The translations under genes were made by a program, and so were the position numbers. Source: Candidatus Heimdallarchaeota archaeon (GTDB taxonomy: Archaea; Asgardarchaeota; Heimdallarchaeia; Heimdallarchaeales; Kariarchaeaceae). Taken from it: a DNA stretch of 32,000 nucleotides. The stretch is from NCBI GenBank assembly GCA_030149205.1, contig JASBSB010000004.1:210001-242000 (forward strand), given 5' to 3'. This document shows, one piece after another, positions 120 to 20,916 of this stretch; positions within the stretch are counted from its first letter, which is position 1; every line of letters starts with the position of its first letter. A model generated the notes under the pieces. The model did not search any database. It saw only the letters and a list, made by a program, of their open reading frames with translations, and was not told the origin of the DNA.

Positions 120-764
120 ATGAATTTGGAAAAGCAAAAAGCGAATCGAGAAGAAGAGCCTTGGAAGGGCCCAACAGGTGTTTTATTTTTTCTCAATGTT
201 CTTTTCTATGTTTTTGCATACGGTTTCTCAGTCTTATTAAAATTTGAGGGAAACCCAGTTTATATAGACATTTTTTCAATGCCAAGCACTTCAGTCGTGG
301 TTTTTGGGCTATCATTCCTTACTTTATCAGATGGCTGGTTTTGGCAAATTATTACTAATATATTTCTACATGCAAATTTGGCACATCTGTTTGGAAATAT
401 GCTATTTTTGTTTATCTATGGATTTGCTCTTGAAGAGAGAGGATTTTCCGATAATGAAATTTATCTTGGTTTTATTCTAACAGGTATTCTTTCATCCCTC
501 GTATCAATGTTTTTTTTACCCTATACAAGTTTCTCACTGGGTGCATCAGGAGCAATCTTTGGATTGCTTGGAATGATTATAGCCTGGGCAAAGGTTCATA
601 GAAGTGACATTTGGAAGCGACAGGTTCTACTTGGAATTCTATTGTTTGTCTTTTCTTCAGCGCAACCAAACGTGAATATTTTTGCACATTTATTTGGTTT
701 AATTTTTGGTTATCTTATCTATTTTACACCCTTATTCAACAAATCTCTTTCTGTACCTCAATAG
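120..764 (+). CDS. Rhomboid family intramembrane serine protease
   Basis: Multi-TM protein with FLHANLAHLFGNM, catalytic GASGAIFG (Ser) and AHLFG (His); 3' end overlaps the convergent S8 gene by 33 nt. Confidence 0.93.
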   Translation: MNLEKQKANREEEPWKGPTGVLFFLNVLFYVFAYGFSVLLKFEGNPVYIDIFSMPSTSVVVFGLSFLTLSDGWFWQIITNIFLHANLAHLFGNMLFLFIYGFALEERGFSDNEIYLGFILTGILSSLVSMFFLPYTSFSLGASGAIFGLLGMIIAWAKVHRSDIWKRQVLLGILLFVFSSAQPNVNIFAHLFGLIFGYLIYFTPLFNKSLSVPQ

Positions 765-3700
765 TTTGTTCTGAATATACTGACCCTCATTTTTAACCCA
801 TAGGACCCAAGATAGAATTAAGAATCCAAGGAAAAGAAAACTGAAATTCGTGATTTGATCTTGACCAGTGTAATACTCAAGGTTTGCAAAGATATCAATT
901 TGAGTGCTTGATACTATTTTCCCATTTTGTAGAATCGGAATCACCAAGGTATAAGCCCCATAAAAATCAAATCTAAACTTATGAAAGAATTCATTGTTGG
1001 TCCTGGTAATATTGAACTGTGTGATAAAGTAAGGGGCTTCCTTGTGGATTAAGAAGGCTTGCGTACTTTGAGGTAAATTCAATTGTGTTTTATTACTGAA
1101 TTGAATTCCTTGTAAATTAAAACGAATATCTTCATACATTTTTACAGTTAACTGATTAGTCCCCGTAATAAGTTTCCCATTCAAAAGCATGTTTGCTATC
1201 GGAACTTGGTCTGAAATCAGCCAATTGACAAGACTGGACGCCATACGATTATAGAAGATAGCATCAGTTTGCGTGCTTCCATAATTTAGCAATTGGCTTG
1301 TGAAGGGTAAAACTGATGAGAATACTGCAACTCGCCCTTTACCTGAATTAGCCGCAGCTGCAAGTGTACTCTGTCCAAATGTAGCCAATTTAATCACGTC
1401 TTTCGATAGTAAATCAAGCTGAGGACCAAAACTAAGAATTGAGCCCTGTGCTGGTATAATTTTTTGAAATTTGTTAATTTGTGCATTAACAGGAACTTTT
1501 GTAAAGTTATAATCTATTCTACCATCATTATTGTTGTCAGTGATTATTCTTATGGGAACATTTTTGTTATTTATATTCATGTTTAAAATTTGATTGACTG
1601 ATTGAACTGCAAATGGTCCTACTGGTTGGTTTTCATTAACAAAGGTGCCTCCGTTAGCTAAAATGAGGAGACTCCCGCCCTGTATGTCAACAAATTTGCG
1701 GATAATTTCGACTTCAACAGGAGAGTATGCATAGTTCGGGTCAGCAATAATAAGTAAATTGACACCATTCAATGTTGATTTAGTAATAGTTTCATGATTC
1801 ACGGCCACACTAAACCCATTTAGTCTTAAAAGATTTCCGAACTCGTTGAATTTTCCCTGAGGTCCATTATTATAATAATATCCTGGTTGGTTAGCAGTCC
1901 CTTCTTTAGATACATCAAACAGAATTTTTCCCCTTTCAAATGTTGATGTGCTAAAATATGTTATATTCATAAATTTCATTTTTTGAGCTGTAGATGATTC
2001 AATAAAATAGAGTTCAGCTTTATTTTGGATCACCCTCTTATCATTTATAGTTATGTTTACATTGATAATATTCTCTCCAACATTTAATTTGACCAATTTG
2101 GGCATTTGAATGCTTACGTTCCCATACTTATAGTCAACTCGTGGATTCACGGTCAAGTTTCTTGCACTAAAGACAGAAATATTGAAGCTTGAAGTTGAAC
2201 CAATAATATTGTTAACAAACCAACTGTTTGGTTTTCTCACTCTATCATAACCATTGTTTCTGTATTCAGTTCCGTCATGGATCACGATTGGATTAGAATT
2301 GGCAAACTCTGTAGGGTCTTGATTTGTCGAGAACATTTTATCTAAAATTAGATATGATTTGGTAAAATTTACCAACCCACGTCCTTGAACTTCAACATTA
2401 ACTCCTAAGTCCTTGGCACCAGCTAATATTGCTTGTTTAATATCAGATGAGGTAGCTTGTGGAAAGGCCTCTCGTAGTAAGAGAGCTCCAGCAGAAACAT
2501 GAGGCACTCCCATTGAGGTTCCACTTTTTACTGAAGGGACATCATGAGGACCAACAGATACAATTTGAACTCCTGGTGCAATAATATCGGGTTTATTCAA
2601 GTAAGATGGAGGAACCGATGGTCCTTGGGAGCTTAATCCCCAAACTTGTTGTTGATTGATAGCTGCTCCTACACCAATTACATTGGGGAGTGCTGCAGGA
2701 ATACCAATAGTTGAACCTCCCAAAACTCCATCGTTTCCAGCGGCAGCGACTAACAAAATGTCTTTTTGCTGAGCCGCTTTTACCAACTTATAGTATAAAT
2801 CAGATGTACCGTTATAATTTGTAGAGCCAAAGCTCATTGAAATAACGGAAACATTTTTCGAGATTGCCATATCTAGACCTTCGAGAACCCAAGCTGATTC
2901 TCCAAATCCATAACGGTTTAACACTTTGATTGAATCTACCTGGGCAAAGGGTGCCACACCATGGCTTTTATACTGCTTAAGTTTTCCATTTACATTATAA
3001 ATTCCATTTCCAACAGCGATTCCACCAACATGAGATCCATGTGTTGAATGATCAAAAACACCCTCAGAATTTGCAAGATATGGAATAGCAAAATCAAAAA
3101 CTCTAGATTGGGATAAATTTGAGAGTGTTTTGAATGCAGCCAAAGAATTATTGATTCCTGTGTCGACAATTGCCATCCGCTGATTTTCTCCAAAGAATCC
3201 TTTGTTCCAGAGATAATTAAGACCAATCCATGAGGTAGATGTATCTAATAATGTACCTGATAAAACTGTGGAAAGTGAATCAAGATTTTCAAAATACTTA
3301 TTATGTGATGATAGGGCGTAACTGTTAAATTGACTTGTTAAGGTCTTTTGCAATCCCTTTAGTTCAGGTATTTTTTTGGAATTTTGGATGGAGATTGCTG
3401 GAATGTTCTTAAAATCGTATACAATTTTTATTCCTGAATTCAGAAGTTTAGAGATCGCTGCTTGTTTATTGGAAAATGTGTCAAAATTTAATATTTTTTC
3501 CATCGAAACAGACTTTAGATTGCTGGGTAGAATTCCTTTTGATGTTTTCATTAGGTTTGGGTTTTGAACTAATGGGTTAGAATCAATCAAGTTTCTATTT
3601 TTCTGATATAGAGAACTTTGTTCTTGATGAGTAGAAATTATATTTTGTTTGGCATGAGTTTCAGAGATATTTTGAAATGAGGGATTTGACACGGTGAGAA

Positions 3701-3773
3701 TTGGAGATATTAAGATACATATAAGGAGAGTTGTAAAGAGAAGATTCTTACCCATTAAATTACTCAAACTCAA
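732..3773 (-). CDS. Membrane-anchored S8 subtilase with Site-1-protease-like architecture (signal peptide, prodomain, S8, GldG/DUF4350-like domain, C-terminal TM)
   Basis: Catalytic triad motifs AIVDTGI, THGSHVGG, SGTSMGVPHV; oxyanion AAAGNDG; hydrophobic N-terminus; C-terminal TM FSFLFLGFLILSWVLWV followed by a basic tail. True start may be the ATG at 3755 rather than the TTG at 3773. Confidence 0.88.
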   Translation of the reverse strand: MSLSNLMGKNLLFTTLLICILISPILTVSNPSFQNISETHAKQNIISTHQEQSSLYQKNRNLIDSNPLVQNPNLMKTSKGILPSNLKSVSMEKILNFDTFSNKQAAISKLLNSGIKIVYDFKNIPAISIQNSKKIPELKGLQKTLTSQFNSYALSSHNKYFENLDSLSTVLSGTLLDTSTSWIGLNYLWNKGFFGENQRMAIVDTGINNSLAAFKTLSNLSQSRVFDFAIPYLANSEGVFDHSTHGSHVGGIAVGNGIYNVNGKLKQYKSHGVAPFAQVDSIKVLNRYGFGESAWVLEGLDMAISKNVSVISMSFGSTNYNGTSDLYYKLVKAAQQKDILLVAAAGNDGVLGGSTIGIPAALPNVIGVGAAINQQQVWGLSSQGPSVPPSYLNKPDIIAPGVQIVSVGPHDVPSVKSGTSMGVPHVSAGALLLREAFPQATSSDIKQAILAGAKDLGVNVEVQGRGLVNFTKSYLILDKMFSTNQDPTEFANSNPIVIHDGTEYRNNGYDRVRKPNSWFVNNIIGSTSSFNISVFSARNLTVNPRVDYKYGNVSIQMPKLVKLNVGENIINVNITINDKRVIQNKAELYFIESSTAQKMKFMNITYFSTSTFERGKILFDVSKEGTANQPGYYYNNGPQGKFNEFGNLLRLNGFSVAVNHETITKSTLNGVNLLIIADPNYAYSPVEVEIIRKFVDIQGGSLLILANGGTFVNENQPVGPFAVQSVNQILNMNINNKNVPIRIITDNNNDGRIDYNFTKVPVNAQINKFQKIIPAQGSILSFGPQLDLLSKDVIKLATFGQSTLAAAANSGKGRVAVFSSVLPFTSQLLNYGSTQTDAIFYNRMASSLVNWLISDQVPIANMLLNGKLITGTNQLTVKMYEDIRFNLQGIQFSNKTQLNLPQSTQAFLIHKEAPYFITQFNITRTNNEFFHKFRFDFYGAYTLVIPILQNGKIVSSTQIDIFANLEYYTGQDQITNFSFLFLGFLILSWVLWVKNEGQYIQNKLLRYRKRFVE

Positions 3774-3839: not shown

Positions 3840-4769
3840 TCATGTGAGAAGTTCAACAGAAGATTTACCAACTAAAACTGTATGCTCATGTTGTGATACC
3901 AATGCTCGTTTAGATTTTTCTATTAATACAGGATATTTCATGATTATTTTCCGTTTTAGCAAGAACTGTATTTTTTTGTTTATTTCTTTTTTTTCAGCGA
4001 GTGTGTTTTTGTCAGTTACAAATCTTGGAGAAAAGGGTAAAATACCCACCTTTTGATAAAAATCATCAAAGATTTTGTTGAGTTTTTCATGATTTCCCTT
4101 TGGTTTCTTTATTATTCGGAAAATATTTGATACTTCAGATTCTTTGATAGCACCAGTCATTGTTGATGCAAATGGTTCTATTGCATAGACCTTTCCTGAT
4201 TCGAATTCACTTGCCCCCAAAAATTGCGCCCCTGAATGGTTTGGAACAGACACACCTGCATGAAGAACATATCGTTTAATTTGATGACCTGATAATTCCT
4301 TTATTGGATTAAATCCTGCTTGAGTTATAGTGGATTCAATAATCTTACCAATAGTTTTAAGTTTTTGACCTGCATGGACGTTCTCAACAGCTTTTGTTAA
4401 TGCAGTTTTAGTGCTATTTACCAAAGAATCTGTATCATCAGAAAATGAGACTGTAACTGCTGTGTCTACTATATATCCATCAATATGAACACCCAAATCA
4501 AGTTTAATCACATCTCGCTCTCCAATAATACGAGTGTCTAATATCTCAGGGGAATAATGTGCAGCTTCATAGTTTACTGAAAAGTTGGTTGGAAAGGCTG
4601 GAATGCCCCCCAGTTCACGAATTTTGTTTTCGATCTCTTCAACAATTTCATATGCATTTTCTCCGGGTTGGATTAATTTTTTTGCAAGTTTCTTGGCTGA
4701 TTTTGAAATTCTTCCGGCTTTTCGATACTTAGAAAGAATTTCTTTTCCTGAGGTGTTTATTTGTGACAT
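3840..4769 (-). CDS. map: Methionine aminopeptidase, type II (archaeal/eukaryotic type)
   Basis: Metal-ligand motifs AAHYSP, KLDLGVHIDGYIVDTAVT, LSGHQI, YAIEPF, SQHEHTV; helical insertion between EPF and HEHT typical of type II. Confidence 0.95.
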   Translation of the reverse strand: MSQINTSGKEILSKYRKAGRISKSAKKLAKKLIQPGENAYEIVEEIENKIRELGGIPAFPTNFSVNYEAAHYSPEILDTRIIGERDVIKLDLGVHIDGYIVDTAVTVSFSDDTDSLVNSTKTALTKAVENVHAGQKLKTIGKIIESTITQAGFNPIKELSGHQIKRYVLHAGVSVPNHSGAQFLGASEFESGKVYAIEPFASTMTGAIKESEVSNIFRIIKKPKGNHEKLNKIFDDFYQKVGILPFSPRFVTDKNTLAEKKEINKKIQFLLKRKIIMKYPVLIEKSKRALVSQHEHTVLVGKSSVELLT

Positions 4770-4802: not shown

Positions 4803-7800
4803 TTAGGCTTTCCACTGAGGCATAGCCATAAAATTGGTTACCAACGTACCAAATTCAGAAACAAACAGTGGGTCAGAAGTTACTATCCCATAGGGTTCTT
4901 TAGAGTTTAAAGGTCTTGCAACCATTATCTCCTCGGCATCTCGGGTAACTATAACCATGTTCATTCCTCCTCGATATCTTGATTCGTCATGCTCCCTAAG
5001 TTGTATGTTGTTTTCACTTTTACGTAGAAACTCAACTATTTTTTCATCCTCTGAAGTATGCTGCTTTCGGTCGGTAATAATTGTAACTGCTGTTCTACTA
5101 TATTCCTCCCAAATCTTCGGATTCAACCAATCAATATTAGGAGAAATAATGGTGAGCTTTGATTTAGTTCGACTTATGATACCATTGAGATTCGCTTCAA
5201 CTGCCTCTTTAGAAGCGTCTACATAGGTAGTTTCAATGATCTTAGGCTCTATCCCTTCACTAGTTTCCGCTATTGTTTTTAGTAATTTTATAGATTTCGC
5301 AGTTGCTTGCAGAGTTTCTTCAATAATACCAGGGATCTGTTCTATTGATTGTAATACATTCCCTTCATTTTTAGAATTCAATTCCTTAAGTGTCGTTGTT
5401 AGTTTTGAACTTAAACTATCAAGATCATTGTTTACTGTTGAATAGTTGGATTGAAGATTAGAGATAGCTTCATTGTACACTTTTTGAATGAATTCAGAGA
5501 ATTTTACATAATTTCCTTCAATCCCTTTGTCCACAATCTCTATATACTCATCGTTTACTTTATCAAGAGATTCATAAATGCCTTTGAGCATTGTACTTGC
5601 GCTTTCTGATGCCTTAACAACTGAATCCTCAATTACCTTAGTTGGTTGGTTTGTGGCTGATTTTAATCCTTCAATCTCATTCTGAATAAACTCAGACACA
5701 GTCTCATTAGTGTTTTGCACTGAAGAATTCACTGAAGTTAAAAGCTCATTTAACTGCTCAGTCGTCAAATTTTGATGATTTAAGGTTAAGGATTTCATTG
5801 ACTCAACTTGGGTTGAATAAATCTTTAAATGAGATTTATCAATTTCCTTTGTTTTATTCATCACCGATGTTCTAAACTTTTCTATGGATTTATTAAAATC
5901 AGTTTGTAGTTTCTCTCTCAACTTCTCTACTGATACAATTAGTTCTTTTGAATATGAATCAATTTTCTTTACCTCTGTATCAATTTTAGAGAATCCCGTA
6001 AGAGACTTATTAAAATTGGTTGAAAGTGCTTTTTCTACTATTGCTTTTTCTTTTTCAACAGATGCTTTAAAATCCTTATCTAGATTATTTGTGTCTGTTT
6101 TGATGGTAGCTAGTGGCTTTGACACATTTGTTGTTAATGAGTCAGTTGATTTCTTAATCCCCTTAACTGCTGATTGGACTGCTTTGACTATGGATCCCAC
6201 CGTCTCTTTCGTGTTCTTATCTTGAGTATTTTGTGTCGAATTGATAGTTTGTCCTGTCAATTTAATTATTTCGTCTTTAACCATACCGAGGTCTTCAGAG
6301 AATTTTTCAAACGAATCATCAATTAATTTAGACTGTTCTTCTAATCCCTCATCTAAATTGGAAGATTCTTTTGCCACAATTTCTTTGATTTCCTTACTTT
6401 TGGTCTCGACTGTTGTAGAAAGAACAGCTTTAACCTTGTCTACAATTTCATTCACTGATTCTAAACTTTGGTTTGCAATTTGTTTTACAAAAGTGTTTAA
6501 TTCCGTCTCATGAGTACCTATCACTTTTGAGATTCCATCTGCTGTTTTACGGATTTTATCCTCAAATTCATCTTTTAGAGTCTCTATTGTTGAATTTATT
6601 GATGTTATCTCTCCGTCAACAACTTCAATTAATTCAGATTGGAATGAATTTAGAAGTTCTACCAATTGATTAACAGCTTCAGAAATCCCTTCCATACTAG
6701 ACTCTTGATTTATCAAGATTCTGTTTTCTTTGGAGTTGCCTTCAACACCAGTTGCTAGGTATTGTGCCTTCGAAATCATTTCGGTAACAGGCGACACAAA
6801 ATATTTATTTAGCTCAGAAGACACTGTACCCTCAAATTTGGTGACAATTTCAAGACTAGAGGAAACCAATGTTTCCTTAAATGTCTCCTCATAATTTAGA
6901 ATATCAGTTGTAAAAGTTGCCAGTACAGACCCGTAAGAGTTAGATTGATCATCAATTAAGTTTTCAACTCGTTCTAATTCATCCTGAACTGTTCTACTCA
7001 AACTATCTAATACTTCACCTTGAGTGGTCTCCGTATCACTCAAGGCATCGCCCAAGAATTTATCCAAGGATTGGGAAAGTCTACCAAAATCATTGGTTAC
7101 ACGTTTATGCTCTTCTAGTTTTTGTATGACGAAATCCTTTTTCCCGAATAACCCCTTTGTGTTTGATTCTAAGGCAACTTCAAGTTCTCTAAGATGCTGA
7201 CTTGTTTTTTCTTTGAATGCCTCAAATTCTCGCTTTAAATTTCCAAGTTGGTCCTGATGATCATTAAATATCCTTTCAATATCAGTGGGTAGTTGTTCCC
7301 TTATATTTACAATATTTAATTCAAAATCAGACTTAAATTGTTTTAGCTTCGTTAGATTTGTGTTTTGTACTTTAGAGCTTGCACCGTTAAATCTGGACTC
7401 AGCATCAGAACAAGATTTTTTAAACTCTTCAAGCTGATTTTCTCTAACATCAGCTATGAGTTTCATAGAATTATCGATTAATTTCTTACTTGCAGCAGAT
7501 GCTTCAATTTGTAATGATTCTGCATCATTATTTAAATCGGTGATTTGTTCATTCATCCTCGCAATAATATCTTCATGGGTTTCTCTATAATTTGTTAATT
7601 TATCTAGAGTCTGGTCAATTGCATTTTGAACCGAAGTACTGATTGTGTTGACAGATTGAACTTTTTGCTCGGTTGTGTTGGACACAAACTCCTTGACATA
7701 TTTTTCGAGTGATTGTAATTTTTCATCGGAGATTTCAGTAACATTATCTTGAGTTTCACTTGATAATGAGTTATTTTTAGACTCCGTATTTTCAACCATC

Positions 7801-9239
7801 TTGTCTAAATTTGTTGAGACGTCAGAAATCAGATCTCCTAACCCAGACTCTAAGTCTGTCCTTGTATCATTTAAGAATTTAGTCACTTCATTTACAAGAA
7901 GATTCAAATTCTCTTTTACAAGATTAACAGTATTTCCTGACTCCTGCTTTAATGTCTCTTTGAACTCCGTATTAACAGATTTAATCTGTTCAAAAATCTT
8001 GGTGAAATCACTATTAACCTTTTTGTTTAATATATCGAGGTCTGATTTCAATTTTGTATTTGTCGTTTCTAATATCTTGGTTAAATCTTTTTCCGTAGAA
8101 TTTAGGTTTTTGGTAACTGCATCAAGAATCTGTTTTAACCCTTCTAGTGCAGTGGATTGTGTTGATTCAATGGAAGACAATAGGAGGCCTTGAATATTTT
8201 CAATACTAGCTATTAAGCTTTGACTAAATTTATCTAAGGAAGTTTTGGCGACATCAATTGATTCTGATTTCAAAGCATCCTTTACTTTGATTAAATCTGC
8301 AAGAGTTGTTAGTATTAATTTAGAAGAGTCCTTTGAAGTTTTTTTCAATGATTCGAGAAGATCCACAAAATTTTGATGAACATCTGTTGTAACATTCTCA
8401 CCAGCTTCGTTTGCTGATTTGTTTATTGTCTTCGAAATTTCATCAACTGAGGAGTTAAGTGACTTATCTATCTCTATGATATCAGTCAACTGTTTGTCTG
8501 TTATTTCAGAGAGGCTCTGGGTGATAGCTGTTGTACGTGCATTTGTATTCATCGCCACCTCATTAACATATTCTTGGATTTCACCTGTTATCTCATTTCG
8601 AGTGTTCTCAAGGTCTGCTGAAAATTTGTCAAATAATTGTTTAATGGACTCCGATTGTTCAGTCTTTTGTATTTGAAGCTTTTCATCTGCAGTTTTGAGA
8701 TCAACACTTAGTTTACTTAAAGGAGCTATGATTACTTGTTTTATTTCATTACCGAGTTCTTTCCCTTTAGTTTTTAAATTAGAATCTGAAAGTGTGACTT
8801 CCTCTTTTAGTGTAGCGCTTTGTTGTTCTGTAACTTTTTTAACATCGTTTTCAAATTCATTTAGGGTTTTATCCTTGTTTCCGATAAAATCATCTAATTC
8901 AGAGTCAATTTTTGATTTTGTTGTATCCCAGCTACTTTTTACCTCATCACTGACTACTGCCAGCTTTTGTGATAGTTTTTCGCTAAGGTCTGCTGAAAGT
9001 GCTATTTTTGGAGAAACTGGGATAAAAATACTCATTTCACCATTTGTTGATTTTACTTCTTTAACAAGACCCTTAGTTTTAAGTTGGTCTACCGCTCCTC
9101 TAATCTCTTCCAAACTGGTAGAGTCAATATATGTGTAAATTTGTCCTAAGGTTCTAAACCCAAAAGTAACTAGATTAGTATAGGTTTTTGCCTCTATTTC
9201 CGAAAATCCGAGATCACTTAATTCTGTTGCTATGCTCAT
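4803..9239 (-). CDS. TrmB-like winged-helix protein with about 1250-aa hendecad coiled-coil insert and C-terminal TrmB effector/PLD-like domain
   Basis: N-terminus LSDLGFSEIEAKTYTNLV...LKTKGLV...FIPVSP matches TrmB wHTH pattern; aa about 82-1330 helical with 11-residue periodicity; last about 148 aa (EPKIIETTYVDASKEAV...IISP...VIVTRDAEEIMV) resemble the TrmB PLD-like domain without HxK. Confidence 0.75.
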   Translation of the reverse strand: MSIATELSDLGFSEIEAKTYTNLVTFGFRTLGQIYTYIDSTSLEEIRGAVDQLKTKGLVKEVKSTNGEMSIFIPVSPKIALSADLSEKLSQKLAVVSDEVKSSWDTTKSKIDSELDDFIGNKDKTLNEFENDVKKVTEQQSATLKEEVTLSDSNLKTKGKELGNEIKQVIIAPLSKLSVDLKTADEKLQIQKTEQSESIKQLFDKFSADLENTRNEITGEIQEYVNEVAMNTNARTTAITQSLSEITDKQLTDIIEIDKSLNSSVDEISKTINKSANEAGENVTTDVHQNFVDLLESLKKTSKDSSKLILTTLADLIKVKDALKSESIDVAKTSLDKFSQSLIASIENIQGLLLSSIESTQSTALEGLKQILDAVTKNLNSTEKDLTKILETTNTKLKSDLDILNKKVNSDFTKIFEQIKSVNTEFKETLKQESGNTVNLVKENLNLLVNEVTKFLNDTRTDLESGLGDLISDVSTNLDKMVENTESKNNSLSSETQDNVTEISDEKLQSLEKYVKEFVSNTTEQKVQSVNTISTSVQNAIDQTLDKLTNYRETHEDIIARMNEQITDLNNDAESLQIEASAASKKLIDNSMKLIADVRENQLEEFKKSCSDAESRFNGASSKVQNTNLTKLKQFKSDFELNIVNIREQLPTDIERIFNDHQDQLGNLKREFEAFKEKTSQHLRELEVALESNTKGLFGKKDFVIQKLEEHKRVTNDFGRLSQSLDKFLGDALSDTETTQGEVLDSLSRTVQDELERVENLIDDQSNSYGSVLATFTTDILNYEETFKETLVSSSLEIVTKFEGTVSSELNKYFVSPVTEMISKAQYLATGVEGNSKENRILINQESSMEGISEAVNQLVELLNSFQSELIEVVDGEITSINSTIETLKDEFEDKIRKTADGISKVIGTHETELNTFVKQIANQSLESVNEIVDKVKAVLSTTVETKSKEIKEIVAKESSNLDEGLEEQSKLIDDSFEKFSEDLGMVKDEIIKLTGQTINSTQNTQDKNTKETVGSIVKAVQSAVKGIKKSTDSLTTNVSKPLATIKTDTNNLDKDFKASVEKEKAIVEKALSTNFNKSLTGFSKIDTEVKKIDSYSKELIVSVEKLREKLQTDFNKSIEKFRTSVMNKTKEIDKSHLKIYSTQVESMKSLTLNHQNLTTEQLNELLTSVNSSVQNTNETVSEFIQNEIEGLKSATNQPTKVIEDSVVKASESASTMLKGIYESLDKVNDEYIEIVDKGIEGNYVKFSEFIQKVYNEAISNLQSNYSTVNNDLDSLSSKLTTTLKELNSKNEGNVLQSIEQIPGIIEETLQATAKSIKLLKTIAETSEGIEPKIIETTYVDASKEAVEANLNGIISRTKSKLTIISPNIDWLNPKIWEEYSRTAVTIITDRKQHTSEDEKIVEFLRKSENNIQLREHDESRYRGGMNMVIVTRDAEEIMVARPLNSKEPYGIVTSDPLFVSEFGTLVTNFMAMPQWKA
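7776..8237 (-). repeat. Fourteen in-register hendecad (11-aa) protein repeats, clearest part of the rod
   Basis: LDKFSQSLIAS / IENIQGLLLSS / IESTQSTALEG / LKQILDAVTKN / LNSTEKDLTKI / LETTNTKLKSD / LDILNKKVNSD / FTKIFEQIKSV ... LDKMVENTESK with hydrophobics at positions 1, 4/5 and 8. Confidence 0.85.
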
Positions 9240-10550
9240 CTAAACATCCCTCGTATCTTTAATTATGCTATTTAACAAATTGTTAAGAATTTTTTCAATA
9301 TCCTTAAATTGATCATTCATCTCTTTGCTACCAGATTTACTCAGGTCTTTTGCTTGATCTGTTAGTTTCTTTAGATTCGAAATAAACCGTTGGGTATTTA
9401 GATTTGATTGCTCATTATAATGAGTTTTTGTTTCGTTTAAAATTTTCTTAAAATCAGTTGAAAGAATATTAATTTGTGTTTCAACTAAGGATTTGTTTTC
9501 GTTTCCCAACTTCTCAATTTCAGACCTTAATGTTGCAAATGACTTTATGGCATCTTTCCTGTTGTTTTGGAGTTGACTATTTATAATCTGAAGAGTGTTC
9601 TGAATTTGTTTGGATTGTTCTTCTGTCAAAGAATCAATATTTGAATATAAATTCTGTTTTAAAACCTCTACTTCACCCCTTATTTCTCCAAGAGTTGACC
9701 TTGTTTTATTAAGGTGTGTATCCAACAAATGAACCATTTGTTTGTTGTAGGCATCTATAATATTTTTAAGAGTTCCTTCAAGTTCTCCTTCAAATGAAAG
9801 GACAGTGTCTTGAAGTTCCGCAACCTCCAGAGAAAAGTGAGAATCGATTTCACTGTGCAACCTTGCAAGATTTGATTGTAAGTGATTTATTGTATCACTT
9901 ATAATTTCATTTACAGCTTCTTTTGTCCCTGCAACTCCGCTAAATACTTTCTCTACCTTAGACCCTATAGCGTCTTGAAATTCATCCTTCAGATTCACTA
10001 GAGATTCAGACAATACCTCTTCGTTAAGTTCTAATATAGTTTTTAGTTCTGAATTTACCTCGTCATTTTTTGCCGCAATTAGGTCCAAGGATTTGACCGT
10101 AGATTCAGTTCCTAATGATTGTAAGCTTTTTGTGTATTTCTCAAAATTAGAATTTTGAGTGTTGAGATTATCAGTGACTAAAGAATTCAAAGTATCAAGA
10201 GTTAAGACAAGGGTTGATTCTTCTTGATCGATTATCTGCTTACTGTACTCCTCCATGTTTGCAAAATTTGTGTTCAAATCCTCTTCCATATTTTTAATAT
10301 CTGAGGTGCTCTGTTGGTCTAACTGATTTAGGTCTTGAGTAATTTTGTCTGTTGTCTCTTCATTAGATTTTTTTATTGATTTAATAATCTGAGATTCATT
10401 TTCCTCAACATTTTGCCCAAACTGCTGTATTTTTGACTCCATCTTACCCTTTAGGGAACTCAATTCATTGTTAATTTCATTGGTTTTTGCTGAGACCTTT
10501 TCATTTATTGACTTCAATCTATTTTTGTAAATATTCTCTTCTTCTGCCAT
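9240..10550 (-). CDS. Hypothetical all-helical protein, continuous hendecad coiled coil
   Basis: 436 aa split into 39 x 11 + 7 with positions 4 and 8 mostly hydrophobic; no Pro, Trp or Cys; AGGTGA SD upstream; TAG stop abuts the next ATG. Confidence 0.8.
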   Translation of the reverse strand: MAEEENIYKNRLKSINEKVSAKTNEINNELSSLKGKMESKIQQFGQNVEENESQIIKSIKKSNEETTDKITQDLNQLDQQSTSDIKNMEEDLNTNFANMEEYSKQIIDQEESTLVLTLDTLNSLVTDNLNTQNSNFEKYTKSLQSLGTESTVKSLDLIAAKNDEVNSELKTILELNEEVLSESLVNLKDEFQDAIGSKVEKVFSGVAGTKEAVNEIISDTINHLQSNLARLHSEIDSHFSLEVAELQDTVLSFEGELEGTLKNIIDAYNKQMVHLLDTHLNKTRSTLGEIRGEVEVLKQNLYSNIDSLTEEQSKQIQNTLQIINSQLQNNRKDAIKSFATLRSEIEKLGNENKSLVETQINILSTDFKKILNETKTHYNEQSNLNTQRFISNLKKLTDQAKDLSKSGSKEMNDQFKDIEKILNNLLNSIIKDTRDV

Positions 10551-10554
10551 AATC

Positions 10555-10560
10555 TCACCT
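10555..10560 (-). promoter_or_regulatory. Archaeal-type Shine-Dalgarno site (AGGTGA) coupling the STAND gene to the 436-aa gene
   Basis: Minus strand reads AAT TAA GGTGAGATT ATG. Confidence 0.75.
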
Positions 10561-12230
10561 TAATTTGTTATATAATTTTGCTTTTCAAAATAAGCCTTGT
10601 GTACGGGTAACTCTTCGAATGATATAATTGCCTGGTTTCTGGTCTGTTGAGCAGATTTCTTTTCATTAGCCTCGAGAAACGATTTTATTGATTTTTGATA
10701 GATTGACCGAGCTGCGTAATGGAACATCTTAAGGTCAATCTGATCCGCATGACGACGGTACCTCCTCCCAGCTTCTCGATAGTTTGCAATTGATCTCCAT
10801 TCAATTCCCGCCTTTTTAAAATACCTCCCTGATTTGTGGTAAATTTCTGCAGCATAATAATTGTGATCTTTCATTGCAAATTTCTTAGCGATTTGTTCTG
10901 AAAGTTCTCCCAACCTCTCATAATTTTGTATCTTTTCTAACCCTGAGGTAGATATATCTAAAAACTCCAAGGATGTATTGATTAAACCATTTTCCAATGC
11001 AATTTCTGAGGTTTTAGCAAATTCTGTGGCTAAACTAAAAATCAAGTTACGATCCGAAATATTTCCCATCGTTCGTTTAATGATATTTACATCCTCTTCA
11101 TAAGGAAGTTGTTTTTCACTTGAAAGTGATTGAACTCTAGACAGGAGGAGTAATATCTCAGTTCTTGGGTCGATTGGTAAAAATACCTGTTTGATTAATT
11201 CCCAGATTGCAGGACTAATAAAACTATAGAATTCACCATCCTGAATTAAAATTAATCCTTCTTGTAGTCTCTTTATAGTTTCGATGTCGCTATGGGCAGT
11301 CAAGTCTGACTTTTTAAAATGATTTACTTCTGACTTTGACATTTGTGATAAGAGTTCAACTTCAATGTTAGATAGACCAAACGCTATCTGCAACATTCCA
11401 GAAGTGATCTTGGTAAAATCAAGGTTATGAGAGAGCAGATATTGTCGTAATTTAATGTCAAATGGGAGTCGTGTTGAAACACTTAGAATTTGTTCTCTTT
11501 GTGTTTTTATTAATTTTCCAATACGACGCATCATAAGTTCAGCATCCTTGAAATCAAAAGCACTGATCGTTATTTCTTTGCAGATCCCCTCTGGACATTT
11601 AATCAAATGTTGTGTAGATTTTAAACCGGTGGTCACAAAAAATAAATTATATCCTCGTTTGTGCGATTCTGTAATTATACTCCTTATAAGATCGAAAACA
11701 GAGTATTGTTCATAATATGAAATTCTTTCTAGATTGTCAAGAAACACTCCAATTTTTTGTCTTTCCTGTTTAAATTTGGAATTCACCTTATCCAAATTTT
11801 CAAAAAAAAGTGTAAGAAATTCGTTCCTATTTTGTTCTGAAATTTCCTTTTTGAAAAACAGTTTGCTTTGTGCTAATGAAACCTCTCCAATGCTGGTTCC
11901 AGTTTTTTTCTGAATAAAACTTCTCCATTCAGGAGAAAGGTTATCTAGCTTTTCCTTAAAGCCATTAAAAAGTGAAACCATGTTATCAGGGTTAATTGGA
12001 ACCTCCAAGCTAAAGACTATCGCTCCCCTCGTCATTGCTGTTTCCATAAATTTTCTCATTAATGATGATTTACCCGAGCCTGCAACTCCAGAAATATGAA
12101 ACCAGTTAGGAGCGGGTTGGTCATTAATTATCTCTTTGATAGTCTCATCAAATAGGTTTAATTCATCAACTCTTCCAACAAAATCATTGGGGTTAACCAG
12201 TGAGATTACTTCTTCAAATGAGATTTCCAT
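10560..12230 (-). CDS. STAND-class P-loop ATPase (AAA_16-like) with winged helix and C-terminal TPR/SNAP-like repeats
   Basis: FVGRVDEL pre-Walker motif, Walker A GVAGSGKS (12066-12089), Walker B VFLDNL, sensor FFVTTG, degenerate GxP (STRLPF), wHTH-like IKRLQEGLILIQDGEFYSFISP, helical repeats AAEIYHKSGRYFKKAG/ANYREAGRRY. Confidence 0.8.
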   Translation of the reverse strand: MEISFEEVISLVNPNDFVGRVDELNLFDETIKEIINDQPAPNWFHISGVAGSGKSSLMRKFMETAMTRGAIVFSLEVPINPDNMVSLFNGFKEKLDNLSPEWRSFIQKKTGTSIGEVSLAQSKLFFKKEISEQNRNEFLTLFFENLDKVNSKFKQERQKIGVFLDNLERISYYEQYSVFDLIRSIITESHKRGYNLFFVTTGLKSTQHLIKCPEGICKEITISAFDFKDAELMMRRIGKLIKTQREQILSVSTRLPFDIKLRQYLLSHNLDFTKITSGMLQIAFGLSNIEVELLSQMSKSEVNHFKKSDLTAHSDIETIKRLQEGLILIQDGEFYSFISPAIWELIKQVFLPIDPRTEILLLLSRVQSLSSEKQLPYEEDVNIIKRTMGNISDRNLIFSLATEFAKTSEIALENGLINTSLEFLDISTSGLEKIQNYERLGELSEQIAKKFAMKDHNYYAAEIYHKSGRYFKKAGIEWRSIANYREAGRRYRRHADQIDLKMFHYAARSIYQKSIKSFLEANEKKSAQQTRNQAIISFEELPVHKAYFEKQNYITN

Positions 12231-12268
12231 GTTATCCTAACCTTGTTCAAATTAGTTTAAGCGGTAAC

Positions 12269-12276
12269 CTATAAAA
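12269..12276 (-). promoter_or_regulatory. Putative TATA box for the STAND / coiled-coil operon
   Basis: TTTTATAG 38 nt upstream of the ATG at 12230, leaving room for a short leader containing AGGTTAGGA. Confidence 0.4.
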
Positions 12277-12291
12277 TTCTAACCTTCTAGT

Positions 12292-12300
12292 AAAAAGAAA
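12292..12300 (-). terminator. Putative archaeal oligo-U terminator after the CPBP-like gene
   Basis: TTTCTTTTT on the minus strand, 14 nt downstream of the stop at 12315. Confidence 0.4.
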
Positions 12301-12314
12301 TTGTTCGCTATTTG

Positions 12315-14528
12315 TTAGATGTTTATTGTAAGTGAGTCTCTCACCCCAGCTAATGGATAGTTTGGATCTATCTTGAGTATTGATTTTATACCAATCTTTA
12401 CTAAGTCCTTATACGGGTGCTCTTCTATTGTTGTGACCATTCGGTTCAAAGAGTTTATGCTTTCTAGCTCACCCAAAGCCCATAATGCTGAAATTTTAAC
12501 TTGGATGTTCGGATGAGACAAGAGGTCTCTAATGGTACCTTCAGAAAATTTATAATGTTTTAACCCTAATCCAATGACCAATCCACAGATTGATCCTTCA
12601 GTTAATTTCTCTTCCTTCAATTTATTAAGTAACTCTTCATCTGTGTAGTATTCAAGTTTGCTTGATAGCAAAATAGAACCCAACTTAACCATCTCATGAG
12701 GGTGATTCTCTAATTCCTTATATATTTTTGAAAATTGATCCTGTGAGCGAAAAATCACCCACCTAAATGTCTCCTTTCTACCTTTGTATCCTATACCGAC
12801 TGCATAATCTGAGTCTATCTCTTCCAAGTCCTCAGGAAATACCACTAAAAGAAAAGGAAGAAAAAGTGGAAGTGTTCGCCAACTAAAATGTGAAATTGCT
12901 GCCTGACTTCCAATAATATAAAACATAGAAATCCCGAGTAAATACAAACTTGAAATTACCCGTGGCCTCCAGGAGCGGGAGAAAAAATATCCATAGAGTT
13001 GAGCTCTTCTCATAAAGAAGAAGGCAAATGAAAATGCTACAGCTGGACCTACAACAAATAAAAGTATATAATAAAGAACATTTAATGATGTTAGCTGTTC
13101 AATTTGTCTGTATACAGCATAAATGAATAGTAGATATAAATAAAGAAGACCAAAAATTAACCCGAACATTCTTGGATTTGAAAACCTGTTTGATTTGACT
13201 GTAAGGAGTTTACTTTCCTCTAAATAGTCAAGGTCTGGTTTCACAACCAGAGGGTAAAGATGATTCAAATTAAAGGTCTCTTCTTTAATAGTTAATTGTA
13301 TTAACGGATCTGGATCTGGGAAATATTTAAACAGAATTGGTAAGACAAACCTAAGAATCACAATTGCAATAATAAATCCGAGAACTAATCCTATTATGGA
13401 AGTGGAGACAATGCTTGATGTTGCTGAATTTATTAGGCTGAATATTAATGCAATCACAAAGAAGGCAAGGATTATTAAGAATAATGATTTATATTCCCGT
13501 CTAATACCAATATATGCTGATTTAAAGAATTCTATGGTATCCTGATACCCCAAAATCAATGATACAGGAGAAAGTATTAAAAGAGCAATCCCCAGAAAAT
13601 TCAAAAATGTAAAGGTCTGTGAGGTAAAGAAGGCCCCACTTGAAAGAAATGGAATATAGCTATCAACAAATAAGGTTAATAGCTCTTTAGAAACATCTTG
13701 GAAGAGTGAATTTGGCTGTAAAAGTGGAACTAAAACCGCAAAAAGTAAAACTGACCAGAAATTTTTTGTCTTTAAGAGTATAAACCCAGCAATTATTCCA
13801 TAAGTAAAATTCAATACAAAAACCAAAGAAACTGATCCCCAAGCAGAAGGTGAGAATATTCCCATAATGTTTACAAATGAAATTGCTTGAATTATTGCCA
13901 CAACCAAAATTGAGACACCTAATCCAAGTTTGTTTATTCTCGAATAATTTAATAATACGCCCCTAAGTAATATTTCTACTGCAATATAACTTAATATGAA
14001 AGAAATAAAAATTATGATTCGTTCACCTATTAAATTCGTAGCAGGTTTAATCTGAGTATAAACGCTAATAGTAAAGCTATCTATTGAAAATTGATTACTA
14101 TTGAACAGAAATATAGTTTGCTGACCAAAAATTGAGACTAAAGATTGAGTGAAAATAAATTGGAACAGCAAATACAAACCAACACCCATGAAGGTTAAAT
14201 AGAGAGTAAATAACTTCGATTTCCTTCCAAGGATAGGGCTATAGTTCATTTTTTCTTGACTCATTTTATTCATCGATGCAAGAATAGTCAAAAATGGAAT
14301 TAAAAATGCTATTGCAAGTGAAGAATTAATAATGAATCGGTATTGACCAGGGAAACCCCCGTTAATTATATCTCCAACATTTCCAAGAAGAGCTCCAAGT
14401 ACATTATTTCCAAAGATAAAGCCCATGATTAGACCAATTAAATAAGCTGGGAATAGGATTCCGTAATAGAAATTCAAAAATTGAGGTCCATTTATCTTAT
14501 TAATCCAATTTTCTGACAATTTACTCAT
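12315..14528 (-). CDS. Polytopic membrane protein with degenerate CPBP (CAAX protease-like) domain and C-terminal HEAT repeats
   Basis: Many TM helices; VEILLRG and GIIAGFILLKTKNFWSV resemble CPBP segments; HEAT-like LLSHPNIQVKISALWALGEL. Start reassigned from 14555 to ATG 14528 because GGAGGGTGA SD lies just upstream. Confidence 0.65.
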   Translation of the reverse strand: MSKLSENWINKINGPQFLNFYYGILFPAYLIGLIMGFIFGNNVLGALLGNVGDIINGGFPGQYRFIINSSLAIAFLIPFLTILASMNKMSQEKMNYSPILGRKSKLFTLYLTFMGVGLYLLFQFIFTQSLVSIFGQQTIFLFNSNQFSIDSFTISVYTQIKPATNLIGERIIIFISFILSYIAVEILLRGVLLNYSRINKLGLGVSILVVAIIQAISFVNIMGIFSPSAWGSVSLVFVLNFTYGIIAGFILLKTKNFWSVLLFAVLVPLLQPNSLFQDVSKELLTLFVDSYIPFLSSGAFFTSQTFTFLNFLGIALLILSPVSLILGYQDTIEFFKSAYIGIRREYKSLFLIILAFFVIALIFSLINSATSSIVSTSIIGLVLGFIIAIVILRFVLPILFKYFPDPDPLIQLTIKEETFNLNHLYPLVVKPDLDYLEESKLLTVKSNRFSNPRMFGLIFGLLYLYLLFIYAVYRQIEQLTSLNVLYYILLFVVGPAVAFSFAFFFMRRAQLYGYFFSRSWRPRVISSLYLLGISMFYIIGSQAAISHFSWRTLPLFLPFLLVVFPEDLEEIDSDYAVGIGYKGRKETFRWVIFRSQDQFSKIYKELENHPHEMVKLGSILLSSKLEYYTDEELLNKLKEEKLTEGSICGLVIGLGLKHYKFSEGTIRDLLSHPNIQVKISALWALGELESINSLNRMVTTIEEHPYKDLVKIGIKSILKIDPNYPLAGVRDSLTINI

Positions 14529-14529
14529 C

Positions 14530-16344
14530 TTAGTTTTCACCCTCCTGTTCCTCAATAGTCAAGATCATGTCAACTCGACCCTCTTCCTCTGTTTGTTTCT
14601 CTTTATACTTTCTATAAAAATATCGACCTGTTAGAACAGCTATAATTGTGAGAACTAGATAGAATGTACCTCTTAATCGTAAATTCTGCACCACAGGAAC
14701 ATTAATTGAAAGGTTGTTATCGTTCTTTGTGATCTCGTTTACCTGGTTGTTAATGTCAACTGAAACAACAACAGAGAGAGTTTTAGTATCAAACGGTAGA
14801 AATTGATTGAATTTTAGTTCTATCGTATTATTAACGGGAAGAAATGTTACTGTATTTTTTGCGACTTCTTTTCCATCAATTGTAACAGTATAAACGAATT
14901 CTCCAGCTGGAAGTGAACCATTTGAAACTATTTTAACTATAATTGTTTGAGAAGAAAACTCTTCAGGGGGCTTTGGAAAGAAAGTAATTGAATTAACTGC
15001 TAAATCGATAAACCTGTACCATGTAGATTTTACTCCAGTCACATTTCTAAACAATGTTTGTGAGTTTAAGGGGAGCGGTAAGTATGCCATACTCGGTGAC
15101 ATTGGGTTCCCGATTTTCCCAGGTGAAGTCCCTATACCAAATAGAGAATGATTTGCTACAAGTACAGAAGGAACAACTTCTGTTAAAATTTCATGTGTGT
15201 CGTATTTTGAATAGACGGGAATGTCTCGATATGCCACTCTGTATTGATTTGTATCAAAATGAAGTAAAGTCATGTTAGTTTGTTGATTTATTACGGAAAA
15301 TGATTCACTAAATCCTGAAGAGTAAGCAAAGAGCTCCCCGGCTCGCATCTCTGGTGCAGCCATTAGTTCAACAGAAGATGACCTCAATATTCCACCATAA
15401 GCAATATTGATTTCAACAGAAACCGAAATATCCCCTCTTAAGCTTTTGATACCACGAATTGATGAAGTCAACGGCAACACGGTATCACCGAAAATCGCGA
15501 GCTTTTTAATTTGATTGTTAACATATTGAATCTGAAGTTCCGTAGGATGATCTGTAAATATACGAATTTTAGATAAATCGACTTGATTGTTGTTTAAGTT
15601 ATATAGGTTTCCACTAAAAATATAATCTTTACCTCTCAGAAACTTTGGAACCGCCATGCTTGCTTTATAACCACCAATTGTTGTATAAAATGCCCCTATG
15701 GTTGACCTAGATGTGTTAATATAAGCTCCGCTTGTTACTGAAAACATTTTCATAGTGTTTGGGATAAATATCCTTCCTGATTTTACTGTTCCATTTCTGT
15801 GTCTAATGTTAACCTGGGTATCCTGTGTTTTTGTAAATATAGCTATGAACCCATCAAATGGAGCGCGGTACTCATAACCTGCCATTCTAATTGGTAAGAT
15901 TGTATAACTAAAAGAATGATCCCAAGAGATATCCTGAGTGTTTCTCTGTACGATAACTTGGACTGGAGAAGTTGTTCTAATTAACGAACCATTAGTCAAC
16001 CCTCTTGCATTGTCAGGGTCCAAAATAATAGTTTGTGGGGTTCGAATCTGAGATTGTGTAACTCCAGCTTTATCTTGAGCAAAGGTTGTAATGAGAACCG
16101 ATGGTTGAATAAAGGTAATTTGGATAATGGATTTTCCGTCAGCATGACTAGAGTTAAAGATTAAGGGAACATAATAATCAAAAAATTGAGGTGACCCCCC
16201 ACCTCCTCCTCCTCCTCCTGCAGGAGGTGTCCCAGGATCTCCCTCAGAAGAATCGGCCATTACTGAATTTGGATTTCCTAGGCTTATAATAAATAAGATT
16301 ACCAAGCAAATTCCAAAAGTTTTCTTGGTAATATTTCTAACCAC
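14530..16344 (-). CDS. Type I membrane surface protein: signal peptide, Gly-rich linker, IgGFc-binding-like beta region, CARDB/Ig-like domain, C-terminal TM
   Basis: Signal KKTFGICLVILFIISLG; YTILPIRMAGYEY...IAIFTKTQDTQVNI; CARDB-like DLAVNSITF...NNQVNEITKNDNN; TM FYLVLTIIAVLTG then RYFYRKYKEK. Confidence 0.65.
   Translation of the reverse strand: MVRNITKKTFGICLVILFIISLGNPNSVMADSSEGDPGTPPAGGGGGGGGSPQFFDYYVPLIFNSSHADGKSIIQITFIQPSVLITTFAQDKAGVTQSQIRTPQTIILDPDNARGLTNGSLIRTTSPVQVIVQRNTQDISWDHSFSYTILPIRMAGYEYRAPFDGFIAIFTKTQDTQVNIRHRNGTVKSGRIFIPNTMKMFSVTSGAYINTSRSTIGAFYTTIGGYKASMAVPKFLRGKDYIFSGNLYNLNNNQVDLSKIRIFTDHPTELQIQYVNNQIKKLAIFGDTVLPLTSSIRGIKSLRGDISVSVEINIAYGGILRSSSVELMAAPEMRAGELFAYSSGFSESFSVINQQTNMTLLHFDTNQYRVAYRDIPVYSKYDTHEILTEVVPSVLVANHSLFGIGTSPGKIGNPMSPSMAYLPLPLNSQTLFRNVTGVKSTWYRFIDLAVNSITFFPKPPEEFSSQTIIVKIVSNGSLPAGEFVYTVTIDGKEVAKNTVTFLPVNNTIELKFNQFLPFDTKTLSVVVSVDINNQVNEITKNDNNLSINVPVVQNLRLRGTFYLVLTIIAVLTGRYFYRKYKEKQTEEEGRVDMILTIEEQEGEN
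16202..16219 (-). repeat. (AGG)6 trinucleotide microsatellite within a Gly8-encoding run
   Basis: Plus strand shows CCT six times; encodes part of PPAGGGGGGGGSP. Confidence 0.9.
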
Positions 16345-19805: not shown

Positions 19806-19809
19806 TGAC

Positions 19810-20849: not shown

Positions 20850-20916
20850 AATTTAATTCCTCCTAAGAGAAATAGGAAATTCCCTCCCTCTAAATTTATT
20901 TGGTATCTAAATTAAA

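Follow-up and report, generated by a model that had tools for sequence, protein, structure and literature searches.

A three-gene operon of Asgard archaea encoding a STAND ATPase, a hendecad rod and a TrmB-type protein with a giant hendecad rod

Introduction

TrmB is a sugar regulator of the Thermococcales and, like TrmBL2, consists of a winged helix-turn-helix (wHTH), a following helix and a phospholipase D-like (PLD-like) domain. [quoted passage not shown] Here, we describe a three-gene operon that encodes a TrmB-type protein with a rod of ~1,250 residues, a second long rod and a STAND ATPase. The operon lies in a stretch of 32,000 nt from a Heimdall-group (Kariarchaeaceae-like) Asgard genome (assembly GCA_030149205.1, contig JASBSB010000004.1, positions 210,001 to 242,000 of the forward strand), which was analyzed as a whole and is called the window below.

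The operon resembles several described systems in part. Its largest product, here called the giant, has the wHTH, the following helix and the PLD-like domain of TrmB and TrmBL2 and, as in TrmBL2, no sugar-binding subdomain; unlike these proteins, it joins its two ends by a hendecad link of ~1,250 residues rather than a helix of ~30, does not keep the DNA-contacting Tyr and Asp, and is encoded together with a STAND ATPase and a second rod. SMC proteins, Rad50 and MukB also combine DNA-related globular ends, a long arm that is length-matched about a central element (a hinge or zinc hook there, a K-x-[LVM]-F-G-K-K-type motif here) and an ATPase, but this likeness is one of topology only. The termini of the giant are a wHTH and a PLD-like domain instead of ABC half-heads, the ATPase is a separate STAND protein, the rod is built of hendecads and not heptads, and the midpoint carries an 8-residue Lys/Gly/Phe motif without a Cys pair, with neither a hinge nor a CxxC hook. 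The ATPase has the nucleotide-binding domain, arm, winged helix and TPR-like sensor of MalT, AfsR, GutR and the archaeal protein 6mfv; unlike the STAND regulators, it has no fused DNA-binding or effector domain, and its family (33 relatives) is restricted to Asgard archaea. Avs and NLR proteins share the STAND-TPR fold, and the long helical partners match models of LmuB and the ZorA tail, but the locus has no effector domain, MotA-like membrane part, SMC head or defence-island context. The 11-residue periodicity of the rods is also that of apolipoproteins A1, A4 and E (Pfam Apolipoprotein matches are sub-threshold) and of right-handed coiled coils of the tetrabrachion type; unlike apolipoproteins, the rods combine a strongly acidic charge with a narrow a/e/h core, which makes an amphipathic surface for binding lipid unlikely. 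Lastly, a helical-repeat domain, a P-loop ATPase and helical-bundle partners recall alpha-SNAP and NSF in idea, although the ATPase here is a STAND protein and not a classic NSF-type AAA+ protein.

An earlier note, made from the letters of this DNA, had recognized no named system with this composition, and profile, fold and literature searches likewise assign it to none; neither this operon nor any TrmB protein with a giant rod was found described in the papers searched. Because a defining feature of each of SMC and Rad50 proteins, Zorya, Avs, HKD nucleases and TrmB regulators proper is missing, we rate this as a system of a new kind made from known parts (the TrmB family, STAND NTPases and hendecad coiled coils), with a function that we infer.

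Organization of the operon

Three open reading frames (ORFs) on the minus strand make up the operon and are referred to below as the ATPase, the small rod and the giant:

10560-12230, minus strand: effector-less STAND P-loop NTPase, 556 aa (Pfam AAA_16, AlphaFold2 [AF2] model, Foldseek, VIA-align)
10555-10560, minus strand: AGGTGA, Shine-Dalgarno-like motif at the ATPase-rod junction (direct reading)
9240-10550, minus strand: pure hendecad rod, 436 aa (11/3 periodicity)
4803-9239, minus strand: giant with TrmB-type wHTH, hendecad rod and PLD-like domain, 1478 aa (Pfam TrmB, periodicity, AF2 and Foldseek)

The gap between the ATPase and the small rod is 9 nt, and AGGTGA overlaps the stop codon of the ATPase; between the small rod and the giant the gap is 0 nt, with TAG abutting ATG. 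ORF coordinates and junctions therefore read as the earlier note had claimed, including the methionine aminopeptidase gene (map) 33 nt downstream. Its account of the three products also held: an effector-less STAND ATPase (AAA_16 cut-off, AF2 model and STAND fold matches), a pure 436-aa hendecad rod (periodicity and continuous register), and a giant composed of a wHTH, a hendecad rod of ~1,250 aa and a PLD-like domain (Pfam TrmB, periodicity and the fold of the C-domain).

The giant belongs to the TrmB/TrmBL2 family

Having both a TrmB-type wHTH and a C-terminal domain of TrmBL2-like fold, the giant is a member of the TrmB/TrmBL2 family in which ~1,250 residues have been inserted in place of the short dimerization helix. 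Its parts, from the N terminus onward, are as follows:

9009-9221, minus strand: TrmB-type wHTH, residues 7-77 (Pfam TrmB, PF01978)
7158-9008, minus strand: N-arm of the rod, residues 78-694, ~93 nm (phase track; one register over ~600 residues)
7134-7157, minus strand: midpoint (apex or dyad) motif KGLFGKKD, residues 695-702 (phase jump at ~690-705)
5265-7133, minus strand: C-arm of the rod, residues 703-1325, ~94 nm (phase track)
4806-5264, minus strand: PLD-like C-terminal domain of TrmB/TrmBL2 type, no HKD (AF2 model with a predicted local distance difference test score [pLDDT] of 87.4, and Foldseek)

Residues 1-110 alone match Pfam TrmB (PF01978) at 28.9 bits against a cut-off of 25.6, and a profile of 20 homologous N-termini (alignment A4) searched against PDB finds TrmB (3qph, E 1e-10) and TrmBL2 (E 2.5e-6), with the alignment to TrmB extending into the helix after the wHTH. 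At about residue 78, the position at which TrmB enters its coiled-coil helix, the hendecad rod sets in; it is ~40 times longer than that helix. Sequence searches with the C-domain against Pfam and PDB gave no match, and this domain was identified by fold search alone: for the last 165 residues, the best Foldseek match is TrmBL2 (5bqt, E 6e-9), followed by NucT, TrmB (3qph and 2f5t) and many PLDs. In an alignment of 20 C-domains (A3), K1359 is nearly invariant, R1433 and D1434 are invariant and E1436 is conserved, but there is no invariant His, and hence no HxK(x)4D catalytic motif of HKD phosphodiesterases; the C-domain is therefore taken to be a non-catalytic PLD-like module, as in TrmB proteins. 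The giant ends right after this domain and so lacks the sugar-binding subdomain of TrmB, like TrmBL2. Both the N- and the C-terminal domain are conserved across classes.

Two rods with symmetric midpoints

Hydrophobic residues recur with a period of 11/3 in both rods, with a power of 14.7 in the giant and 12.7 in the small rod against a maximum of ~2 in 100 shuffles, and the power at a period of 3.5 is below 0.2 in both. The core positions a, e and h form a narrow stripe that is 54-78% hydrophobic (58-71% in the N-arm of the giant), and both proteins carry a strong net negative charge, -72 in the giant and -25 in the small rod. This combination of an acidic surface and a narrow a/e/h core argues for spacer coiled coils, as opposed to lipid- or DNA-binding surfaces.

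In the giant, the N-arm and the C-arm meet at the phase jump around KGLFGKKD, and secondary register breaks occur in the C-arm near residues 815-835 and 1080. When rod boundaries in homologues were fixed at residue 80 and at the length minus 150, the main register break fell at a rod fraction of 0.48-0.53 in ~20 of 24 giants (902-1812 aa). A regular expression for K-x-[LVM]-F-G-K-K-type motifs, run over whole rods, matched once per rod and no more than 15 residues from the midpoint in 13 of the 24 (1176-1812 aa); a 14th match, in locus L018, lies off the midpoint, at the C-terminal end of the rod. Variants of the motif found elsewhere are KKVFGPKKE, NKLFGKGEG, QKVFGKEE, RKLFDKKE, SSLFGLRK and KKKLSLGKEE. 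The N- and C-arms measure 458/488 residues in a 1176-aa giant and 792/790 in an 1812-aa giant of the same Freyr-labelled family, and 510/519, 592/618 and 615/633 in other lineages. The motif thus sits at the midpoint of the rod across giant lengths, from which it follows that the two arm lengths co-vary. Such a balance is what antiparallel pairing of the two halves predicts, and on this pattern the arms would pair antiparallel, either as a hairpin within one chain or as a dimer.

The small rod contains no Pro, Trp or Cys, keeps its register unbroken from end to end and would measure ~65 nm as a single helix. Its most conserved block, residues 175-265, lies within a central module:

9726-10058, minus strand: central module of the small rod, residues 165-275, with invariant E254 (most conserved block)

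The alignment of this module (A5, 20 sequences) is essentially gapless and contains the invariant Glu. The module is central in the 425-487-aa rods from which its profile was built, and the profile has one strong match at the exact center of the 503-773-aa pure rods in every other lineage. Both rods are therefore symmetric about their midpoints, a feature newly described here. The idea that the length of the small rod equals a sub-segment of the giant's arm fits some lineages and fails in others, and was dropped.

The ATPase

The ATPase passes Pfam AAA_16 (35.1 bits against a cut-off of 32.6), with weaker matches to ATPase_2 and NACHT, and in its AF2 model (pLDDT 89.8) a nucleotide-binding domain is followed by a helical arm, a winged helix and ~10 antiparallel TPR-like helices. 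The following elements were located:

12063-12089, minus strand: Walker A motif GxxGxGKS, G48-S56 (G51 and G53 invariant in 19 divergent homologues, alignment A1)
11736-11750, minus strand: Walker B strand ending at D165 (D165 invariant in A1; strand E160-165 in the model)
10581-11168, minus strand: TPR-like helical repeat domain, residues ~355-550 (helices H355-H549 in the AF2 model)

Foldseek matches in PDB are the STAND-TPR protein 6mfv (E 3.4e-10), which spans the full length of the ATPase, and Avs3, Avs5, MalT and Apaf-1/NLRs; Orc1/Cdc6 is also among the fold matches from Foldseek and VIA-align. In VIA-align, model residues 1-352 align to MalT (8bob, Z 16.4), NLRP, NOD2 and Apaf-1, indicating that the STAND arm and winged helix are present. 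Among Swiss-Prot models, the look-alikes are NPHP3, AfsR, PknK, MalT and GutR. C-terminal repeats of the STAND sensor type are present as well, and the repeat domain aligns to the TPR sensor of 6mfv and to the TPRs of LGN/Pins at Z 13, which is weak for helical repeats. A fused effector domain is absent, with ~40 residues before the P-loop and nothing after the repeats, whereas every look-alike in the AlphaFold database has extra domains. When 1.84 billion representative proteins were scanned exhaustively with HMMER, only 33 relatives came up, and those with a name are called "hypothetical" or bear generic names. In the genomes compared below, every product is named "hypothetical," "ATP-binding" or "AAA family ATPase."

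The repeats had been called SNAP/TPR-like. Of this description, the TPR-like part is supported by the fold, and the SNAP-like part is not: the repeats have no Pfam TPR or SNAP match (E up to 10), and neither SNAP nor Sec17 is among the listed fold matches, a comparison that used the whole ATPase model and in which the repeat domain was not folded or searched alone.

Conservation among Asgard archaea

Co-occurrence of the three genes in other genomes had been set beforehand as the point on which the proposed system could fail, and they do co-occur. In the Heimdall-group order, 40 of 41 genomes have the ATPase, and all 14 loci of the order that were inspected, two complete genomes included, keep the sequence ATPase, small rod, giant, with sizes of 557-595, 432-487 and 1241-1489 aa, respectively. 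Their junctions are gaps of at most 17 nt or short overlaps, except for an apparent overlap of 62 nt between the ORFs called for rod and giant in L013. Related loci occur in metagenome-assembled genomes labelled Candidatus Heimdallarchaeota and Kariarchaeota, and variants of the operon in Freyr-, Borr-/Sif-, Jord-, Wukong- and Helarchaeota-labelled genomes; the genomes compared include Heimdallarchaeum aukensis, H. endolithica, Lokiarchaeum ossiferum and Freyarchaeum deiterrae and others labelled Borrarchaeum, Jordarchaeales, Wukongarchaeota and Helarchaeota. Across 30 loci from Asgard lineages, a hendecad-rod gene follows the ATPase in every one with enough downstream DNA (29/29), and these genes have a hendecad power of 4-20 compared with ~0-1.5 for other ORFs.

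In 400 Asgard genomes, the small-rod module gave 71 strong hits (E ≤4e-17), all single-copy and all in ATPase-positive genomes (71/71), and the module adjoins the ATPase in every case compared by coordinates (e.g., G015, G020, G066, G074 and G116). ATPase-positive genomes without a strong module hit are those with the ATPase near a contig end (G005, G039 and G077), one with a partial ATPase (G113), those with the two-gene form described below, and G054. Full-length ATPase matches in the same 400 genomes are confined to certain families, the remaining hits being short P-loop or repeat matches. Of the 22 genomes in one genus-level group, nine carry ATPase and rod together and 12 lack both; a single genome has the ATPase without the rod, at a contig end, and the rod never occurs there by itself.

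The operon occurs in three forms:

Three-gene form: rods of 425-773 aa and giants of 1176-1812 aa (Heimdall-group order; Freyr-, Borr- and Jord-labelled genomes; family f32)
Two-gene form: ATPase of 622-636 aa followed directly by a wHTH-rod-PLD protein of 1048-1123 aa, with no separate small rod (loci L036-L038 and L041; Helarchaeota-labelled, family f15)
ATPase with a rod of 718-721 aa only (family f5)

The Wukong-labelled contig ends within the operon region. As the giant usually but not always joins, the strict universal pair is the ATPase with a hendecad rod. In the giants of the two-gene form, the best match to the small-rod module lies right after the wHTH in two of three and the second best does so in the third; in two of the three, its E-values are 10-1000 times better than those of other repeats, a small margin that makes this a lead only. 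In one f5 genome (G070; L044:7612-14679), the ATPase-rod pair is followed, after a gap of 720 nt, by an ORF of at least 2355 aa that extends to the edge of the stretch covered and has no hendecad signal.

Stand-alone TrmB-rod-PLD proteins of 650-1050 aa also exist without the ATPase. Two of them are encoded in the same genome as the window: one of 908 aa (G000:C8, ~31266-33992; L054:6267-8993), with no central break and no apex motif, and one of 678 aa (G000:C4, ~587042-589078; L055:6043-8079), with a break at the midpoint and no motif. Lokiarchaeum ossiferum and another Loki-group genome, both without the ATPase, carry several stand-alone copies of 943-1051 aa. Clusters of TrmB-rod-PLD proteins in the ESM Atlas have 71-354 archaeal, mostly Asgard, members. 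A word-based homologue search with the whole giant returned only the giant itself, from an index that is limited for low-complexity rods, and a C-domain profile returned only 12 long proteins from the same index.

In a tree of the ATPase, every taxonomic family is monophyletic and the order forms a clade with 100/99 support. Locus L040 (genome G227) is the only carrier of the module in family f20, which comprises 135 genomes; besides the ATPase and a rod of 529 aa, it encodes an upstream protein of 902 aa that has the C-domain but no recognizable wHTH. Its ATPase groups, with moderate support, with the Wukong-labelled row, which suggests that this copy was probably transferred.

Possible function

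The earlier note had proposed an ATP-switched filament or tether that would connect DNA with a distant site such as the membrane, a reading that finds support in part. The interpretation we tentatively prefer, as possible rather than probable, is that the three proteins form an Asgard-specific, non-enzymatic architectural module that acts as a nucleotide-switched long-range tether or bridge for chromosomal DNA, in nucleoid architecture or anchoring. A role at DNA is suggested by the TrmB/TrmBL2 identity of the head. The short antiparallel dimerization helix of TrmB would have been expanded into a hendecad coiled coil of ~1,250 residues, the halves of which would pair antiparallel about the central Lys/Gly/Phe motif. 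Folded as a hairpin, the giant would be ~93 nm long and would bring the wHTH and the PLD-like domain of one chain side by side; as an antiparallel dimer, a direct extension of the TrmB dimer, it would be ~187 nm long with a mixed TrmB-like head at each end. Either form would be an acidic spacer rod bearing one or more DNA-binding heads. The small rod may serve as a second symmetric rod whose conserved central 100 residues form a docking module, and the STAND NTPase may hold the rods through its TPR-like domain and cluster or release them when it oligomerizes on nucleotide binding. Complex prediction for A1, the ATPase, together with A5, the module at the center of the small rod, gave a score of 0.00 with controls not run, which speaks neither for nor against such contact. 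In its strongest version, this proposal is of an SMC-independent core for chromosome tethering in Asgard archaea, in which the TrmB-headed rod of 90-190 nm and its companion rod hold DNA at a fixed distance from some other site in the cell, or bridge DNA segments that lie far apart, and are assembled or released by the STAND ATPase; that version we hold to be unlikely.

Several observations weigh against a DNA tether. Tyr50 and Asp51, which contact DNA in TrmB, are replaced by R/G in the giant, and the column varies among homologues, so that DNA binding by the giant is only plausible. In f5, some genomes carry a 1538-aa giant on the opposite strand, 10-18 kb from the ATPase and rod, and in others no giant was found; the ATPase-rod pair therefore does not require a DNA-binding head. 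The secondary register breaks show positive but weak mirror symmetry about the midpoint (z 0.1-2.2), and since stand-alone paralogs lack a central break (the 678-aa copy excepted), a hairpin is unnecessary in the wider family. No membrane-targeting element has been demonstrated in the module, and a search of sequencing runs found no RNA data set containing the stretch. The module is also dispensable, given that about half of the genus-level group lacks it and one copy was probably transferred, and this would also suit an accessory or a conflict role.

The fold of the ATPase itself raises another explanation, a split MalT-like system for signal-dependent control of transcription: the TPR-like domain of the ATPase would bind a ligand as its signal, the ATPase would act in trans on the TrmB-type protein, and the rods would serve for spacing or multimerization. 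The best fold matches of the ATPase are indeed STAND transcription regulators (MalT at Z 16.4, AfsR and GutR), TrmB-family proteins are classic archaeal regulators, and because the ATPase has no effector domain of its own, an effector acting in trans is plausible. A regulator, though, needs neither a length-balanced rod of 1,250 residues kept over classes nor a second pure rod; the DNA-contact residues of the recognition helix are not conserved, the C-domain is without the sugar-binding subdomain of TrmB, as in TrmBL2, and the f5 pair persists without a linked giant, which together make such control rather unlikely. A further reading is a DNA-independent cytoskeletal or scaffold filament for cell shape, protrusions or membrane support, with the rods as cables or a lattice, the ATPase nucleating or remodelling them, and the wHTH and PLD-like domains as protein-protein end caps: the universal core is the ATPase-rod pair alone, the rods are very long, acidic and regular, the central and apex motifs could be lateral contacts, and a polytopic membrane protein lies directly upstream in three families. 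The query used here, however, did not recover that membrane neighbour in five genomes of other lineages, no filament-forming end-to-end motif is evident, and a bona fide TrmB-type wHTH and a TrmBL2-like domain are kept across classes, so we regard a filament of this kind as doubtful.

STAND-TPR NTPases are also common defence sensors, and with Avs3 and Avs5 among the fold hits of the ATPase, the operon could be imagined as an antiviral or anti-plasmid system in which an Avs-like sensor works with coiled-coil partners, as in Lamassu and Zorya, and the PLD-like domain acts as or recruits the effector. Nucleases such as NucT and Zucchini have the PLD fold, PADLOC matches the rods to models of the ZorA tail and LmuB, and the patchy distribution in f5 and the one likely transfer would suit such a role. 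The C-domain, on the other hand, has no HKD catalytic His. The rods match nothing in PADLOC and NCBIfam beyond the LmuB models and the helical tail of ZorA; the ZorA matches begin at model position ~210 or later, outside the MotA-like part, with scores far below curated cut-offs. For the ATPase, PADLOC returns one weak P-loop match (mad8, E 2e-4) and no meaningful hit. In addition, the module occurs as a single copy, is missing from only one of the order's 41 genomes and keeps a stable synteny next to map, its family-level phylogeny is congruent with taxonomy, and no defence or mobile genes neighbour it; a conflict role is improbable on these grounds. No interaction between the products has been demonstrated, and one could suppose that three unrelated, fast-evolving genes merely lie next to each other without a shared function, but gene order, tight spacing and co-presence or co-absence are kept in at least seven Asgard lineages with rearranged surroundings, and chance adjacency is close to refuted and hardly credible.

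Eukaryotes have no closer known relatives than the Asgard archaea, in which the organization of DNA and internal space is largely unknown. Within the reach of the searches, the gene set is confined to Asgard archaea and occurs in several of their classes, and the rods that it encodes are predicted to rank with the longest regular rods of prokaryotes. If they tether or bridge DNA, they would represent a new class of chromosome organizer that arose independently of SMC, and long coiled-coil "ruler" proteins would predate eukaryotes; as a chromosome tether, the system would be a prokaryotic counterpart of the long coiled-coil tethers by which the nucleus of eukaryotes is organized, and would belong to lineages near the ancestor of eukaryotes. 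Whatever their function, length-balanced hendecad rods are a useful model for the design rules of coiled coils.

Genomic context

The regions flanking the operon contain the following:

12315-14555, minus strand: polytopic membrane protein, 746 aa (many hydrophobic segments in a crude hydropathy scan; faint HEAT-like C terminus)
12231-12314, minus strand: intergenic region upstream of the ATPase (oligo-T run and TTTTATA box, by eye)
3840-4769, minus strand: methionine aminopeptidase, map (Peptidase_M24, E 3.7e-27)

Reading by eye, we located a candidate terminator, a T3CT5 run at 12292-12300, 15 nt past the stop of the preceding gene, and a candidate promoter, TTTTATA at 12270-12276, ~40 nt before the start codon of the ATPase; the two are consistent with an archaeal terminator followed by a promoter. 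The 33 nt between the giant and map hold no oligo-T run, and transcriptional read-through from the giant into map is possible. Elsewhere (L014 and L017-L023), map also borders the operon, namely in another f1 locus and in all seven loci inspected from the Heimdallarchaeaceae-like family f2; in the f2 loci, it lies upstream and divergent, so that the link between map and the operon survives rearrangement. In loci of families f1, f3 and f4, homologues of the membrane protein are encoded on the same strand, immediately upstream of the operon. The query used here recovered none in five genomes from f2, f5, Freyr and Borr, which argues against a universal fourth component; the protein is possibly a lineage-specific accessory or membrane partner.

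Further genes in the window encode a rhomboid, a subtilase, a CARDB protein, a dehydrogenase, a phosphotransferase system (PTS)/dihydroxyacetone-kinase cluster and other metabolic enzymes. That no mobile or defence genes lie nearby, as first noted from the letters, was confirmed by scans of the window and of neighbours. The preference for core cell biology that had been drawn from it holds in part: the housekeeping and metabolic context and a tree that follows taxonomy speak for it, and the absence of the module from about half of the genus-level group and the one likely transfer speak against it.

The stretch was found fully or partly in three DNA metagenome runs, two from sediment and one from a hydrothermal vent, and two more runs from the study of the best-matching run contain next to none of it. 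The subtilase (732-3773, minus strand) is a 1013-aa S8 protein whose region after the catalytic domain gives a near-threshold match to the IFT52 GIFT domain (26.4 against 27.2 bits) and also matches ABC_transp_aux. The cluster at 17798-22774 (minus strand) is a phosphoenolpyruvate-dependent dihydroxyacetone kinase cluster, with PTS enzyme I and Dak1 identified by Pfam.

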